IMG/VR virus record: IMGVR_UViG_2859799533_000003
Coordinates: 1-23,535 of that record
Origin: a virus
Taxonomy: Duplodnaviria > Heunggongvirae > Uroviricota > Caudoviricetes
DNA length: 23,535 nt
Direction: 5' to 3' (one strand)
Part shown: in pieces, positions 3,369 to 17,780 of the stretch
How positions within the stretch are numbered: position 1 is the stretch's first letter
Layout: each line of letters starts with the position of its first letter
Position numbers and translations under genes: made by a program
The notes under the pieces: model-generated
Databases searched by the model: none
The model's input: only the letters and a program-made list of their open reading frames with translations
What the model was told of the DNA's origin: nothing

Positions 3369-4178
3369 ATGAATAATCTGATGGTCATTGATGGTATTGA
3401 AGTTCGTCGTGATGCTTATGGGCGTTACAGCCTGAACGATCTGCATCGCGCAGCAGTAGCATCTGGTGCAAATGCCAGAACCAAGGAGCCGGGAAAGTTT
3501 ATTTCCAGCCAACAAACTGTTGAGCTTGTTCATGAATTGACCAACACCCAGAATTTGGGTGTTGACCCGGTGAGTATGATTCATGGGGGAAATGAACGGG
3601 GAACGTATGTCTGCAAGGAACTGGTGTATGCCTATGCAATGTGGATCAGCCCGTCATTCCATCTGAAGGTGATCCGTACTTTCGACATGGTAACCAGCGC
3701 ACCGGAAAAATTATCCGGACAGGCTGCTGACAAGATGCAGGCTGGTGTGATTCTGCTGGACTTTATGCGCCGGGAATTAAACCTGTCTAACTCTTCAGTG
3801 CTTGGTGCCTGTCAGAAACTCCAGGAGGCTGTTGGCTTACCGAATCTGGCACCGCGCTATGCCATTGATGCTCCTGCTGACGCGCCTGATGGCTCAAGTC
3901 GCCCCACGCTGTCGCTGAGTGCACTGCTGAAACAGTATGGTATCCGCCTTACGGCTAATCAGGCATATCACCAGATGGTGAAGCTGGGGATCGTCGAGCA
4001 GCGCGAACGATACAGCCGTACCGCGATTAACAACATCAAAAAATTCTGGTCGCTGACAGCGAAAGGCTGCATGTTCGGCAAGAACATCACCTGTCCTGCA
4101 AATCCGCGCGAGACGCAGCCGCATTTCTTCGAATCCCGATTCCCTGAGCTGTTAAAGCTGCTCGATACCGTTCATTGA
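3369..4178 (+). CDS. KilA-N domain DNA-binding protein (Roi/antirepressor-like)
   Basis: ATG at 3369 preceded by AGGAG-type SD; N-terminal KilA-N-like region (MNNLMVIDGIEVRRDAYGRYSLNDLHRA). Confidence 0.6.
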   Translation: MNNLMVIDGIEVRRDAYGRYSLNDLHRAAVASGANARTKEPGKFISSQQTVELVHELTNTQNLGVDPVSMIHGGNERGTYVCKELVYAYAMWISPSFHLKVIRTFDMVTSAPEKLSGQAADKMQAGVILLDFMRRELNLSNSSVLGACQKLQEAVGLPNLAPRYAIDAPADAPDGSSRPTLSLSALLKQYGIRLTANQAYHQMVKLGIVEQRERYSRTAINNIKKFWSLTAKGCMFGKNITCPANPRETQPHFFESRFPELLKLLDTVH

Positions 4179-5175: not shown

Positions 5176-5192
5176 TTTTGTGGAGAAAGTTG

Positions 5193-5573
5193 ATGCGTGA
5201 TATTCAGATGGTTCTTGAACGCTGGGGGGCATGGGCTGCAAGTGGTAACACCGGGGTGGACTATTCTCCGATCGCTGCCGGATTCAAAGGACTTTTACCA
5301 TCTGCCACTAAACCACGTCCGGCCTGCTGCGATGATGACGGACTTATCATTGAAAACTGTCTTGCTCGTCTGAAGCAGAAAAAACCTGAGGAGTATTCGC
5401 TTCTCATTGCTCATTATTTGTTGCGAATATCAAAAAGACAGATAGCCAGGACGAGAAAGAAAAGCGAAAAAGCAATACGAATTGAGATGCAGATAGCCGA
5501 AGGGTTTATTGACGGATGTTTGTCTGTGCTGGGGGTAAGACTGGAGATGGACGACTGGCTGCTAAAAAAGTAA
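5193..5573 (+). CDS. Q: late-gene antiterminator, Q-like (short Stx-phage/phage-21 type)
   Basis: 126-aa ORF from ATG 5193 with GGAGA SD; N-terminus MRDIQMVLERWGAWAA resembles Q of Stx/lambdoid phages; followed by terminator-like hairpin and tRNA/late region as in Stx phages. Confidence 0.6.
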   Translation: MRDIQMVLERWGAWAASGNTGVDYSPIAAGFKGLLPSATKPRPACCDDDGLIIENCLARLKQKKPEEYSLLIAHYLLRISKRQIARTRKKSEKAIRIEMQIAEGFIDGCLSVLGVRLEMDDWLLKK

Positions 5574-5645
5574 AAAATGATTAGTGCGGTCCGCAAAAAG
5601 TATGTCAGTATGTTAAGAGTGGTTACTTCGCCACACAGCTTAAAC

Positions 5646-5665
5646 CCGCCGCGAGCGGTTTTTTT
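5646..5665 (+). terminator. candidate tR'-like intrinsic terminator downstream of Q
   Basis: Short GC stem ccgc/gcgg (5646-5658) followed by a 7-T run (5659-5665), about 75 bp after the Q stop. Confidence 0.35.
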
Positions 5666-5787
5666 ATGGCTGAAATCGGTCCAGTACAGTAAACGTGCTG
5701 GTGGCGGTGAATACCTGTCTTTCAGCTTGCTGGCTTTTTCGACAAGAGTTATTGGTGTGTCACGTTAACCGGAAAAGGGAAAAAGAC

Positions 5788-5985
5788 ATGCTGAAACAGC
5801 AGGATATGACAGAAACCGCCAGAGTGGTGTTTAATGAATTAAGCGTCACCGAACCGGCGATAGTCGGGGAGATTGCGCAGAATACTTACCTTTCACGCGA
5901 ACGCTGTCAGTTAATACTGACCCAACTTGTTATGGCGGGTCTGGCAGACTATCAGTTCGGTTGTTACAGACGCCTTCAGTCCTGA
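5788..5985 (+). CDS. hypothetical small protein (66 aa)
   Basis: ATG 5788 preceded by ggaaaaggga SD-like purine run; immediately followed by a strong terminator. Confidence 0.4.
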   Translation: MLKQQDMTETARVVFNELSVTEPAIVGEIAQNTYLSRERCQLILTQLVMAGLADYQFGCYRRLQS

Positions 5986-5999
5986 AGGCTTTTTTATTT
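5972..5999 (+). terminator. rho-independent terminator
   Basis: 7-bp stem gccttca/tgaaggc (5972-5978 / 5983-5989), 4-nt loop, then ttttttattt. Confidence 0.55.
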
Positions 6000-6012
6000 G
6001 TGGTAAATGGGC

Positions 6013-6043
6013 GGCTGGTGGGTGTTAGGGGCACCCACCAGCC
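6013..6043. repeat. perfect 12-bp inverted repeat (hairpin) with 7-nt loop, no T tract
   Basis: ggctggtgggtg (6013-6024) ttagggg cacccaccagcc (6032-6043); read directly. Confidence 0.7.
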
Positions 6044-6135
6044 ATCTGCTCATGCGTTGGGTTCACAAGCAAACCTCAGGCCCACTGCTTTGCGCAAAAG
6101 CAGAATGAGCCTATCAGAGACAGGTTTAATGATCC

Positions 6136-7185
6136 ATGCTTAATACTGTAAAAATATCCAGTTGTGAGTTAATCAACGCCGACTGCCTGGAATTTATCCG
6201 GTCGTTACCCGAAAATTCTGTTGACCTGATAGTCACGGACCCGCCGTACTTTAAAGTGAAGCCTGAGGGCTGGGATAACCAGTGGAAGGGCGACGATGAT
6301 TACCTGAAGTGGCTGGAGCAGTGTCTGGCGCAGTTCTGGCGGGTGCTGAAACCTGCCGGAAGTCTTTACCTGTTCTGTGGTCATCGCCTGGCATCTGATA
6401 TCGAAATCATGATGCGTGAACGCTTCAGTGTGCTGAACCATATTATCTGAGCGAAGCCGTCCGGACGCTGGAACGGATGCAACAAGGAAAGCCTGCGGGC
6501 GTATTTCCCCGCCACAGAGCGCATTCTGTTCGCGGAACATTATCAGGGGCCGTACCGCCCGAAAGATGATGGCTATGAGGCGAAGGGCAGGGTACTGAAA
6601 CAGCATGTGATGGCCCCGCTGATTTCTTACTTTCGTGATGCGCGAGCTGCCCTGGGGATAACGGCAAAACAGATTGCAGATGCCACAGGAAAGAAAAACA
6701 TGGTGTCGCACTGGTTCAGTGCCAGTCAGTGGCAGTTGCCGAATGAAAGCGATTATCTGAAATTACAGGCGCTGTTTGCCCGGGTGGCAGAAGAGAAACA
6801 TCAGCGGAGAGAACTGGAAAAGTCCCATTACCAACTGGTCAGCACATACAGTGAGCTGAGCCGGCAGTATATGGAACTGCTGAGTGAATATAAAAATTTG
6901 CGGAGGTATTTCGGTGTGACGGTGCAGGTGCCGTACACCGATGTGTGGACGTATAAACCGGTGCAGTACTATCCAGGGAAACATCCGTGCGAAAAACCGG
7001 CAGAAATGTTGCAGCAGATAATCAACGCGAGCAGTCGTCCGGGAGACCAGGTTGCAGATTTTTTTATGGGCTCAGGTTCAACGGTAAAAGCGGCACTGGC
7101 GCTCGGGCGTCGTGCGATTGGCGTTGAACTGGAGACCGGACGTTTTGAGCAGACAGTCAGGGAAGTTCAGGATTTAATCGTTTGA
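6136..7185 (+). pseudogene. DNA methyltransferase (N6A/N4C type: DPPY motif then FxGxG SAM motif) interrupted by an in-frame TGA at 6448-6450
   Basis: ORFs 6136-6450 and 6607-7185 are in the same frame and the frame stays open from 6451; motifs VTDPPYF (N-terminal) and FFMGSGST (C-terminal). Confidence 0.7.
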
Positions 7186-7234
7186 AACGGATGAGATTGC
7201 AGAATTAATTACGCACCATTATTATTCTGCTCCC

Positions 7235-7310
7235 GGCCCTTTAGCTCAGTGGTGAGAGCGAGCGACTCATAATCGCCAGGTCGCTGGTTCAAATCCAGCA
7301 AGGGCCACCA
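7235..7310 (+). tRNA. ileZ: tRNA-Ile2 (anticodon CAU, lysidine-type; Met cannot be excluded)
   Basis: 76 nt, perfect 7-bp acceptor and T stems, anticodon loop ctCATaa, encoded CCA; closely resembles recalled E. coli ileX. Symbol by synteny with Stx-phage tRNA trio. Confidence 0.8.
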
Positions 7311-7317
7311 TCACATA

Positions 7318-7391
7318 CCGCCATTAGCTCATCAGGAAAGAGCGCCAGCCTTCGAAGCTGGTTGCGCGGAGTTCGGGTCCCCGAAGGCGGT
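7318..7391 (+). tRNA. argN: tRNA-Arg (anticodon UCG), slightly non-canonical stems
   Basis: Cloverleaf folded by hand: D stem gctc/gagc, anticodon stem ccagc/gctgg, loop ctTCGaa; one mismatch each in acceptor and T stems; no encoded CCA. Symbol by synteny only. Confidence 0.55.
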
Positions 7392-7407
7392 TCATTATCT
7401 GTATCCT

Positions 7408-7484
7408 GCGTTGTTAGCTCAGCCGGACAGAGCAATTGCCTTCTAAGCAATCGGTCACTGGTTCGAATACAGTAGAACGCGCCA
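7408..7484 (+). tRNA. argO: tRNA-Arg (anticodon UCU)
   Basis: D stem gctc/gagc, anticodon stem attgc/gcaat, loop ctTCTaa, T loop ttcgaat, encoded CCA. Symbol by synteny only. Confidence 0.7.
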
Positions 7485-7734
7485 CACTTATTTTCCCTGG
7501 CTCGCTTTTGCGGGCTTTTTTTTAAATGTCTCACAATTCAGGCGGTTGACTGTTGTCTGGTTTGCGGGGAGTTTGTTAAAAGAAACTGGCATGGTGAATC
7601 CCCCTGTGCGGAGGGGCAATCAGCAACTGGTGTTTTGTCCCGACCCTTATCCTTTCTGTGCGGGTTCAGGTGCTGATACTGAACTCACCGGGAGGCACCC
7701 GGCACCATGCAATGGCACATAGCGCCACTCTCCA

Positions 7735-7760
7735 GCCCCTCTCCGGAGGGGCTTTCTTAT
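7735..7760 (+). terminator. terminator-like GC hairpin with T-rich tail in the tRNA to nanS-p intergenic region
   Basis: gcccctc tccg gaggggc (7735-7752) followed by tttcttat. Confidence 0.4.
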
Positions 7761-7986
7761 GGACAAAAAAATCCCGCGCTGGGAGACGCGGGCGGCAAGG
7801 AATAAACAACAAAACGTGAAGTAATATTTCAGCTGGCGAATAATATCCGACAGTAATCACTCTGCGCAATAGCGCGGCCTTTTTCATATTGCGGGCTGTT
7901 GTCTATCTTCTGCCATTGTCCTGTAACTTCCGGACTTCAGCCCGCTCCTCATTTTACTCACAATATTATCCAGGCCGGGAGGATTC

Positions 7987-16757: not shown

Positions 16758-17780
16758 TTGTTTACGACCCGCCAGTTACTCGGTTATACCGAACAAAAAG
16801 TGAAATTCCGTGCGCTGTTTCTGGAGCTGTTTTTCCGCCGTACGGTGAATTTCCACACCGAAGAGGTGATGCTGGACAAAATTACCGGAAAAACGCCGGT
16901 GGCGGCCTATGTCTCCCCGATCGTTGAAGGAAAAGTGCTTCGCCATCGCGGTGGTGAAACCCGCGTGTTACGTCCGGGCTACGTCAAGCCGAAACACGAA
17001 TTTAATTACCAGCAGGCGGTTGAGCGCCTTCCTGGTGAAGATCCGGCTCAGCTGAACGACCCGGCCTACCGTCGTCTGCGTATCATTACCGATAACCTCA
17101 AACAGGAAGAGCACGCCATTGTCCAGGTGGAAGAAATGCAGGCGGTGAATGCCGTGCTGTATGGCAAATACACCATGGAAGGGGATCAGTTTGATACTGT
17201 CGAGGTGGATTTCGGGCGCTCTGAAGGAAATAACATTGAGCAGGCTGACGGTAAAAAATGGTCTGAGCAGGACCGTGATACGTTTGATCCGACGCATGAT
17301 ATTGACCTCTACTGCGATCAGGCCAGCGGCCTTGTGAATATCGCCATTATGGACGGTACGGTCTGGCGTCTGCTGAATGGCTTTAAGCTGTTCCGCGAAA
17401 AACTGGATACCCGTCGCGGCTCAAATTCACAACTCGAAACGGCAGTGAAAGATCTGGGCGCAGTGGTGTCCTTCAAGGGGTATTACGGCGATCTGGCCAT
17501 TGTGGTGGCGAAAACGTCTTATGTGGCAGAGGACGGTACCGAAAAACGTTATCTGCCGGAGGGCATGCTGGTGCTGGGGAATACGGCGGCAGAGGGGATT
17601 CGTTGCTATGGTGCCATTAAGGATGCACAGGCGTTGTCTGAAGGAGTGGTGGCTTCTTCCCGTTACCCGAAACACTGGCTGACCGTGGGCGATCCGTCCT
17701 GTGAATTCACCATGACGCAGTCCGCTCCGCTGATGGTGCTGCCGGATCCGGATGAGTTTGTGGTGGTACAGGTGAAATAA
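16758..17780 (+). CDS. E: major capsid protein (lambda gpE-like); 5' end abuts IS629, native start and RBS replaced
   Basis: 340-aa ORF collinear with recalled lambda E (FTTRQLL ... SPIVEGKVLRHRGG ... KLDTRRGSNSQLETAVKDLG ... SAPLMVLPDPDEFVVVQVK); ORF begins at TTG 3 bp after the IS629 terminus. Confidence 0.85.
   Translation: MFTTRQLLGYTEQKVKFRALFLELFFRRTVNFHTEEVMLDKITGKTPVAAYVSPIVEGKVLRHRGGETRVLRPGYVKPKHEFNYQQAVERLPGEDPAQLNDPAYRRLRIITDNLKQEEHAIVQVEEMQAVNAVLYGKYTMEGDQFDTVEVDFGRSEGNNIEQADGKKWSEQDRDTFDPTHDIDLYCDQASGLVNIAIMDGTVWRLLNGFKLFREKLDTRRGSNSQLETAVKDLGAVVSFKGYYGDLAIVVAKTSYVAEDGTEKRYLPEGMLVLGNTAAEGIRCYGAIKDAQALSEGVVASSRYPKHWLTVGDPSCEFTMTQSAPLMVLPDPDEFVVVQVK

Follow-up and report, generated by a model that had tools for sequence, protein, structure and literature searches.

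The stretch between the last phage tRNA gene and the gene that starts at 7987 raises the question of what about 500 bp do at the position where Stx phages carry stxAB. We addressed this question in a window of 23,535 nt (positions 1 to 23,535 of the IMG/VR virus record IMGVR_UViG_2859799533_000003, Caudoviricetes), in which the original prediction, made from the letters alone, had read 7485-7986 as an empty stx-equivalent locus with several GC-rich hairpins and had proposed a small RNA or a terminator region there. We found that the region very probably represents the cargo slot and small-RNA pair that are standard in the late regions of lambdoid Stx-type prophages, with the slot empty.

The order Q, tRNA trio, nanS-p is present as described, except that Q (5178-5573; Pfam PF06530) is not adjacent to the tRNAs: the interval contains a small ORF, which has a terminator of its own (5972-5989), and a DNA methylase gene (Pfam) interrupted by a stop codon (6136-6450 and 6607-7185). 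ARAGORN and Rfam tRNA matches place the trio on the plus strand at 7235-7484, with anticodons CAT, TCG and TCT (ileZ/argN/argO type); its third member is a tRNA-Arg that ends at 7484 (ARAGORN), and the annotations of Sakai Sp5 and Sp4 name the identical trio ileZ/argN/argO. Directly from the sequence we read a predicted tRNA operon promoter, TTGCAG-17-TATTAT (7197-7225, plus strand), which is conserved in Sp5 and fits a published start site ahead of the Sp5 tRNAs (PMC7547250). The tRNA operon thus probably has its own promoter in the lysogen.

On the other side of the region, the esterase is present, but the ORF that starts at 7987 encodes a 77-aa DUF1737 protein (7987-8220, plus strand; Pfam PF08410), and the SASA/DUF6645 esterase of nanS-p type is a separate ORF (8254-9948, plus strand; Pfam PF03629 and PF20350). 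The leader of these two genes (7885-7986) is 90-97% identical across locus types, is kept even where the neighbouring segment differs and is more conserved than its neighbours. Farther downstream, where lysis and head genes would be expected, there are four IS elements instead, and the tail genes start again near 18.5 kb; the prophage is degraded. Window positions 5254-12948 are 100% identical to CP026866.1 (GCA_002949955.1).

To place the boundaries of the slot, we used blastn against Sp5, a Stx1 phage, PhiR5_1 and two cargo-bearing E. coli loci. Window 7084-7522 matches Sp5 3615-4054 at 89.6% and ends at the base before the stx2 cassette; similarity resumes at window 7527-7711 (Sp5 5390-5571, 71%), which starts 41 bp past the stx2B stop, and again at window 7862-8094 (Sp5 5710-5942, 90.6%), and the segment 7712-7861 is unrelated to Sp5. 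The flanks of the slot are thus homologous to the flanks of stxAB, and the 1335-bp stx2AB cassette of Sp5 corresponds to 4 bp here (7523-7526). Neither stxA nor stxB is in the slot, and alignment with Sp5 revealed no stx fragment left there. What remains of the slot is a junction at about 7519-7527, in which the T-run of the terminator-like hairpin after the last tRNA (T1) meets the TTTTAAAT box that starts the small-RNA module. Alignment with stx-positive relatives, which had been suggested as a way to define the toxin-cassette boundaries, therefore fixes them to this junction.

The slot is empty, as predicted, but the roughly 500 bp are not the space left by stx. About 460 bp beside the slot are a conserved module, and stx-positive phages carry this module too, downstream of stxB and ahead of nanS-p (the Sp5 counterpart is 486 bp). 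Hence, the remaining stretch is not vacated space. Conservation extends beyond the tRNA-proximal terminator and covers the whole region. Other relatives carry unrelated cargo at the same point: the UPEC-245U locus has a TerB-family protein and DUF3927 (about 758 bp), and in E. coli strain 48 the point is occupied by a SAM-dependent methyltransferase, with two STnc100 modules in tandem after it. The locus thus shares with the moron sites downstream of the Q-dependent late promoter of lambdoid phages its conserved flanks and interchangeable cargo, which elsewhere is stx2AB, stx1AB, TerB-family plus DUF3927, a methyltransferase or nothing; at this locus the slot is empty, and IS elements have displaced the lysis and head genes of the prophage.

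The GC-rich hairpins named in the original prediction are present in the sequence. A consensus terminator scan of 7100-8300 returned five terminator-like sites, compared with 1.1 ± 1.0 in shuffles; these represent four distinct sites, at 7499-7516 (plus), 7734-7753 (plus), 7792-7773 (minus) and 7862-7877 (plus), and one nested site (7738-7751, inside 7734-7753). Each of the four distinct sites has a GC-rich hairpin and a U-run on the transcribed strand. T1, on the plus strand at 7499-7523, is GGCTCGC-TTTT-GCGGGCT then T8, and is kept in Sp5, directly ahead of stx2A. The first of the predicted hairpins is real, although the 7735-7752 stem originally given is only the inner 7 bp of the full hairpin at 7734-7753, AGCCCCTC-TCCG-GAGGGGCT, then TTTCTTAT; it is the terminator of the STnc100-family RNA described below. 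The second, at 7773-7792, is CCCGCG(T)...(G)CGCGGG and is preceded on the plus strand by A7 (7765-7771). Hence, the second hairpin is a terminator of the minus strand.

The fourth site, H3, is on the plus strand (7862-7884, stem 7862-7877), reads CTGCGC-AATA-GCGCGG then CCTTTTT, contains the -35 box of the minus-strand promoter and is retained in each of the four locus types that we aligned. One STnc100 subtype (cluster L024) is without its own terminator and without a minus-strand partner, and there an H3-like hairpin is the first terminator past the core. T1, the STnc100 terminator and H3 on the plus strand, and the single minus-strand hairpin, are therefore predicted intrinsic terminators by their terminator-like features, and the proposed terminator region takes the form of three such plus-strand hairpins, lying after the tRNA genes and before the esterase gene.

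The small RNA that had been proposed as the other possibility is also there, and it is not alone: the region holds an STnc100-family RNA and a convergent RNA on the minus strand. In a search with Rfam covariance models, STnc100 (RF02076) matched 7560-7764 on the plus strand with 142 bits (E 1.9e-32; gathering score 47 bits), and the match is full-length (model positions 1-206 of 206), not truncated. We found the same family 75 nt past stx2B in Sp5 (207.7 bits), 79 nt past stx1B in the Stx1 phage (176.7 bits), in Sakai Sp4 (138 bits) and in phage PhiR5_1 (143 bits); the window copy scores below the Sp5 copy (142 vs 208 bits). Its prophage late-region context, downstream of Q, just past the cargo slot and ahead of the sialate esterase gene, is that of the family and is matched in Sp5, Sp4, Sp15 and PhiR5_1. 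In EHEC, STnc100 is multicopy and Hfq-associated; RNA-seq of EDL933 shows transcription of 11 copies, and a northern blot confirmed one of these (PMC5331693). PasD of EPEC E2348/69 and STnc100 have been reported as structurally related and directly upstream of an esterase gene (bioRxiv 10.64898/2026.05.13.724894).

Since single-sequence folding gave z-scores of only -1.3 to -1.8, we used comparative evidence for structure. To gather further STnc100 copies, we searched public contigs with the invariant 29-mer taken from the first hairpin; the scan of one genome per species gave 5 loci only, and the diversity came from the viral-contig scan. We aligned 31 distinct variants, which gave 29 consensus pairs; the elements preserved are the terminator, the CCGGG...CCCGG hairpin, the GGGTTCAG...CTGAACTC stem, hairpin 1 and the outer helix. 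The outer helix and hairpin 1 are invariant among these variants, and both sides change at pairs 158:181 (AU to GC, 11 sequences) and 162:177 (8 sequences). Hence, the window copy shares with the STnc100 family its conserved hairpins and core as well as the full-length model match.

The gene (EcOnc05/EcOnc27/sRNA103 type; 7531-7764, plus strand) can be divided into a 5' hairpin with compensatory changes across variants (about 7534-7564), the invariant hairpin (7589-7617), a hypervariable segment between hairpin 1 and the core (7618-7661), the conserved core (7662-7711) and the terminator (7734-7753). The variant of the hypervariable segment found here is common to phage PhiR5_1 and some IMG/VR contigs, and this segment suggests itself as the candidate site of target recognition.

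From the northern sizes reported for EcOnc05 and EcOnc27, we put the 5' end of the window RNA near 7531-7535, where the conserved module begins on its left side and approximately 30 nt upstream of the Rfam model, as seems to be the case for the E. coli prophage STnc100 RNAs. The compensatory changes in the 5' hairpin agree with transcription of the stretch at about 7534-7564. The consensus scan of 7100-8300 did not find a consensus sigma-70 promoter for this RNA, and the only conserved box at the expected place is TTAAAT (7522-7527), which is without the canonical A at -11. Across copies, the left edge of the module carries TTAAAT, TGTAAT or TATGTT, a box that fits the northern sizes and is non-canonical here. 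Hence, the 5' end could come from processing of read-through tRNA transcripts.

Convergent to this RNA, we found a predicted sRNA of EcOnc08 type on the minus strand, about 70 nt long (7834-7765), with the layout AGCUGAAAUAUUACUUCACGUUUUGUUGUUUAUUCCUUGCCG-hairpin-U7. Its terminator comprises the stem at 7792-7773 and the U-run at 7771-7765, and its promoter (7840-7869) has a -35 TTGCGC (7869-7864), an 18-nt spacer and a -10 TATTAT (7845-7840); the consensus scan missed this promoter because its -35 matches only 3 of 6 positions. We place the start at 7834 by analogy with the RACE-mapped AsxR start, which would give the 70 nt. Hence, the cargo slot is accompanied by a predicted RNA that is convergent to an STnc100-type sRNA and has its own predicted promoter.

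We aligned 15 variants of the minus-strand unit, namely the window type, five divergent relatives and AsxR-, AgvB- and EcOnc03-like loci. The TTGCGC-18-TAnnAT geometry is kept in 14 of the 15, including the AsxR, AgvB and EcOnc03 types, and the spacer and transcript sequences differ. Common to the variants are the -35 TTGCGC inside H3, the 18-nt spacer, the TAnnAT -10, a variable body, a UUGCC motif and a GC-rich hairpin with a U-run. In this hairpin, 89.9% of the cells of the alignment are paired, compared with 17-50% when the partners are slid, and there are 11 both-side changes. Hence, the hairpin is conserved as a structure.

The minus-strand RNA matches no Rfam family. The AsxR and AgvB models have no match at E ≤ 1 in window 5500-10500, and a comparable search on Sp5 finds AsxR at 88.1 bits, on the minus strand, immediately after STnc100. 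With AsxR (RF02703) and AgvB (RF02702), the window RNA shares its position, its orientation, its convergence on the 3' end of STnc100, the promoter layout with the -35 inside H3, and the order of UUGCC, GC-rich terminator and U-run. However, AsxR and AgvB are marked by a conserved 3' region of about 42 nt (GUAUCUCAUGC...CCCGAACCCACUCGGGC) behind a variable 5' end of 14-18 nt, and this 3' region is absent from the window RNA, which has the UUGCC only and a terminator of different sequence. The window RNA is also predicted to be longer (about 70 nt vs 51-60 nt), and its body is U/G-rich in place of the CACAACA GcvB-target mimic of AsxR and AgvB.

Given this shared position, promoter layout and terminator architecture, the different conserved body (ACUUCACGUUUUGUUGUUUAUUCC) and the lack of an Rfam family, we tentatively raise the idea, which is more likely wrong than right, that the RNA of about 70 nt might be a third class of prophage anti-sRNA, maybe acting on a different host RNA. 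A version in which the U/G-rich segment mimics the GcvB seed that recognises C/A-rich sites was set aside as weak: it matches the GcvB site in the dppA leader perfectly over 10 nt, but the duplex energy of the seed alone with dppA (-12.3 kcal/mol) is reached by 15.6% of shuffles. Pairing with the dppA and oppA leaders, AgvB, AsxR and GcvB was likewise rejected, since the duplexes are not better than those of shuffles (z -1.7 to +1.1). Across the rest of the window, perfect complementarity of 9-10 nt or longer to either RNA is at chance (15 ten-mers vs about 10 expected), so local targets were not found.

The same arrangement has been described in EHEC. Tree et al. (2014) reported convergent Hfq-bound sRNA pairs, flanked by the cargo gene and the downstream conserved ORF, in eight Sakai prophages (PMC4104026); later work repeated the description (PMC7547250), and a review called the units 'dyads of Hfq-binding sRNAs' (PMC7873438). 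By Hfq crosslinking and northern blots, Sp4 yielded EcOnc05 (plus, ~222 nt) and EcOnc08 and EcOnc21 (minus, ~271 nt) (PMC4104026, Table S2); EcOnc27 of Sp5 gave ~235/247 nt on northern blots and is Hfq-dependent, and EcOnc42 of Sp15, 3' of stx1B, is a homologue of EcOnc08/21 (PMC4104026). We found that Sakai Sp4 has the empty junction seen here and is about 98% identical over 7700-7986. The region is essentially the same DNA as the EcOnc08/EcOnc21 (Sp4) and EcOnc42 (Sp15) loci, with about 5 differences in ~290 nt for Sp4, and we found nothing at the sequence level that would set it apart from them. Expression, Hfq binding and RNA sizes are taken by analogy from the literature on the near-identical Sp4 locus.

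To place the published peaks on the window, we used inferred offsets between genome versions (0 for Sp4; about +135 to +142 for Sp5 and Sp15). On these offsets, the EcOnc05 peak maps to ~7635-7743 (plus), the EcOnc08 peak to ~7767-7839 (minus), within a few bases of the predicted 70-nt unit, and the EcOnc21/EcOnc42 peak to ~7842-7930 (minus), on the minus strand of the leader. The published northern size of ~271 nt for EcOnc08/21/42 does not match the 70-nt unit deduced from promoter and terminator. Hence, a longer, co-terminating minus-strand transcript may be the main species. A further Hfq-binding RNA of the Stx-phage late region, StxS (EcOnc15; Sy et al., 2020), is a short late-promoter transcript ended at tR'; StxS and the sRNA pair bracket the toxin genes (PMC7547250), but StxS itself is encoded from the late promoter to tR', ahead of the tRNAs and the toxin genes, and so falls outside 7485-7986.

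The size of the longer transcript bears on whether minus-strand transcription chiefly provides an antisense regulator, of the DUF1737/esterase leader and start codon or of late-operon read-through, and not a trans-acting sRNA. A ~271-nt RNA implies a start near or inside the DUF1737 start, overlapping the ribosome-binding site; the consensus scan found a minus-strand promoter-like site, ATGCCA-17-GATAAT, at 7993-7965; and the leader, as described above, is more conserved than its neighbours. However, no recognisable promoter lies near 8036, where the 271-nt RNA would need one, the EcOnc08 peak fits the short unit, and the conservation of the leader could reflect plus-strand function alone. We regard this reading as rather unlikely, and it is compatible with the main explanation. 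Somewhat less likely still is that the hairpins are a cis-only terminator stack that insulates the cargo slot and the late genes, with the RNAs as by-products that have no trans function. Such a stack is consistent with three plus-strand and one minus-strand terminator-like hairpins within 400 bp, with the absence, in the literature consulted, of an established target for STnc100, EcOnc05 or EcOnc08/21/42, and with the view of review authors that there is no clear reason for the pairing (PMC7873438). Yet the STnc100 core, which lies between the terminators, is conserved, compensatory changes included, and an insulator would have no use for it; the minus-strand unit is served by a conserved promoter of its own; AsxR and AgvB, with the same position and promoter layout, have demonstrated trans targets; and the RNAs are Hfq-bound, with several dependent on Hfq for stability (PMC4104026).

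Two further readings concern what the DNA encodes and how the slot came to be empty. The original prediction saw no credible ORF, and this is borne out: the region's ORFs, 20-73 aa long, have no Pfam match and none is conserved. ORFs do exist, namely one of 73 aa on the minus strand (7887-7666) and one of 43-58 aa on the plus strand that contains MVNPPVRRG; some phage records annotate a 'hypothetical protein' over the stretch, and some STnc100 copies in EDL933 show ribosome footprints (PMC5331693). However, every other copy compared has ACG in place of the ATG of the 73-aa ORF, and this ORF runs through two convergent terminators. The ORF from the conserved ATG in STnc100 hairpin 1 varies from 11 to 50 aa among the 31 variants and does not keep its frame relative to the core (19, 6 and 5 sequences in three frames), which argues that the STnc100 RNA is non-coding. 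We therefore rejected small-protein coding, whose probability we consider negligible. Nearly as improbable is that the junction is the scar of a recent deletion of the stx cassette from a toxin-converting phage. The flanks do align with Sp5 on either side of stx2AB, and Stx1 phages share 97% identity with the part that starts at 7681, but no stx fragment is left, the junction lies in a T-run common to both flanks, the identical direct junction of tRNA terminator and STnc100 is shared by Sakai Sp4 and by 35 of the 123 copies sampled, and unrelated cargo sits at the same point in other relatives. Hence, modular exchange at conserved flanks fits the junction, and specific loss of stx does not.

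The reading we prefer, a standard cargo slot with a small-RNA pair, would work as follows. The tRNA operon would end at T1 (7499-7523), and the slot for stx2AB, stx1AB or other cargo would be reduced to the junction at about 7519-7527. Past it, an STnc100-family sRNA of ~230 nt would be made from the plus strand and end at its own terminator (7734-7753), and the sRNA of ~70 nt would be transcribed towards it on the minus strand, from 7834 to 7765, with its promoter partly inside H3. H3 (stem 7862-7877) would act as a second plus-strand terminator past the slot, ahead of the conserved leader and the DUF1737 and esterase genes.

In the lysogen, both sRNAs would be made independently of the late promoter, and the three plus-strand terminators would keep tRNA and sRNA transcription out of the esterase gene and of the lysis genes that follow it in intact relatives. 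Both RNAs may bind Hfq and base-pair with host RNAs in trans; the hypervariable segment would give STnc100 its specificity, and the 5' body would do so for the minus-strand RNA. We propose trans action because AsxR and AgvB, at the same position and with the same promoter layout, act on host RNAs. Upon induction, Q-modified RNA polymerase of lambdoid phages reads through terminators, so polymerase that starts at the late promoter would be expected to read through T1, the STnc100 terminator and H3. Since IS elements have taken the place of the lysis and head genes, so that the downstream late operon is gone, this read-through may no longer operate in this copy.

The feature is already known: the module is in Rfam and in the EHEC literature, and a near-identical empty locus is published for Sakai Sp4. 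Hence, it matters little as a discovery. The minus-strand RNA of EcOnc08 type, which has the promoter and terminator architecture of AsxR and AgvB and yet no Rfam family, is a loose end of some interest. For annotation, the boundaries of the cargo slot are now fixed to within a few bases, and an 'empty' stretch beside phage tRNA genes is to be read as two sRNA genes plus terminators, not as spare DNA.

In the window, the STnc100 small RNA (Rfam RF02076, 7560-7764, plus strand) is separated from H3, a plus-strand terminator-like hairpin at 7862-7877, by a predicted convergent minus-strand sRNA unit of ~70 nt (7834-7765). Comparison with public loci revealed an STnc100 subtype (e.g. L024, L025 and L100) with neither its own terminator nor the minus-strand partner, in which an H3-like hairpin (GGCTGCGCATGGCGCGGCC followed by T8) is the first terminator 3' of the STnc100 core. 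This arrangement in the L024-type loci suggests that the minus-strand unit was inserted between the STnc100 core and H3. We also found loci with more than one copy: the IMG/VR contig L031 has two, and E. coli strain 48 (L141, NZ_CP166879.1) has two tandem STnc100 modules (locus positions 2467-2706 and 2963 onward) downstream of a methyltransferase cargo gene, with ~250 bp of other sequence between them.

Upstream, two structures could be the late-promoter-proximal terminator: a short GC hairpin with T7 directly 3' of the antiterminator gene Q (~5643-5665) or the clean terminator GCCTTCAG-TCCT-GAAGGC plus T6 (5972-5989), which follows a small ORF 3' of Q (ORF and terminator together, 5788-5989). 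Between Q and the tRNAs lies an N6/N4 DNA methylase gene (6136-7185) that an in-frame TGA at 6448-6450 splits into ORFs of 104 and 192 aa; the methylase is intact (349 aa) in the near-identical loci L131 and L133-L135. The first tRNA gene (7235-7310) was called Met (anticodon CAT) by ARAGORN, its equivalent in E. coli O157 Sakai is annotated as ileZ (tRNA-Ile, CAT), and RefSeq genomes disagree, with Ile in some and Met in others.

Downstream, IS elements are crowded into 10259-17780, in place of the lysis and head genes: an IS3-family orfB (10259-11077, minus strand), IS110 (11232-12407), IS66 (12699-15088, minus strand) and a second IS3-family element with an ALIL frameshift pseudoknot at 15781-15897. 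In the intact relative L136, the esterase gene is followed by DUF1378, DUF826, holin, lysozyme and Rz genes. Another compared locus, the 888-bp L010 (NZ_JPLE01000080.1, 'Xanthomonas pisi DSM 18956 Contig_80'), is 99.8% identical to the Sakai Stx2 prophage Sp5 from the stx2B 3' end to the esterase gene start, and looks like Stx2-phage DNA contaminating the Xanthomonas pisi DSM 18956 assembly.

DUF1737 (7987-8220, stop at 8218-8220) and the SASA esterase (8254-9948) are two ORFs in the window, whereas Sakai prophages Sp4, Sp5 and Sp15 have them annotated as a single fused protein. Many public contigs show the same split (77 aa plus 564 aa), which may therefore represent a normal allele rather than damage.
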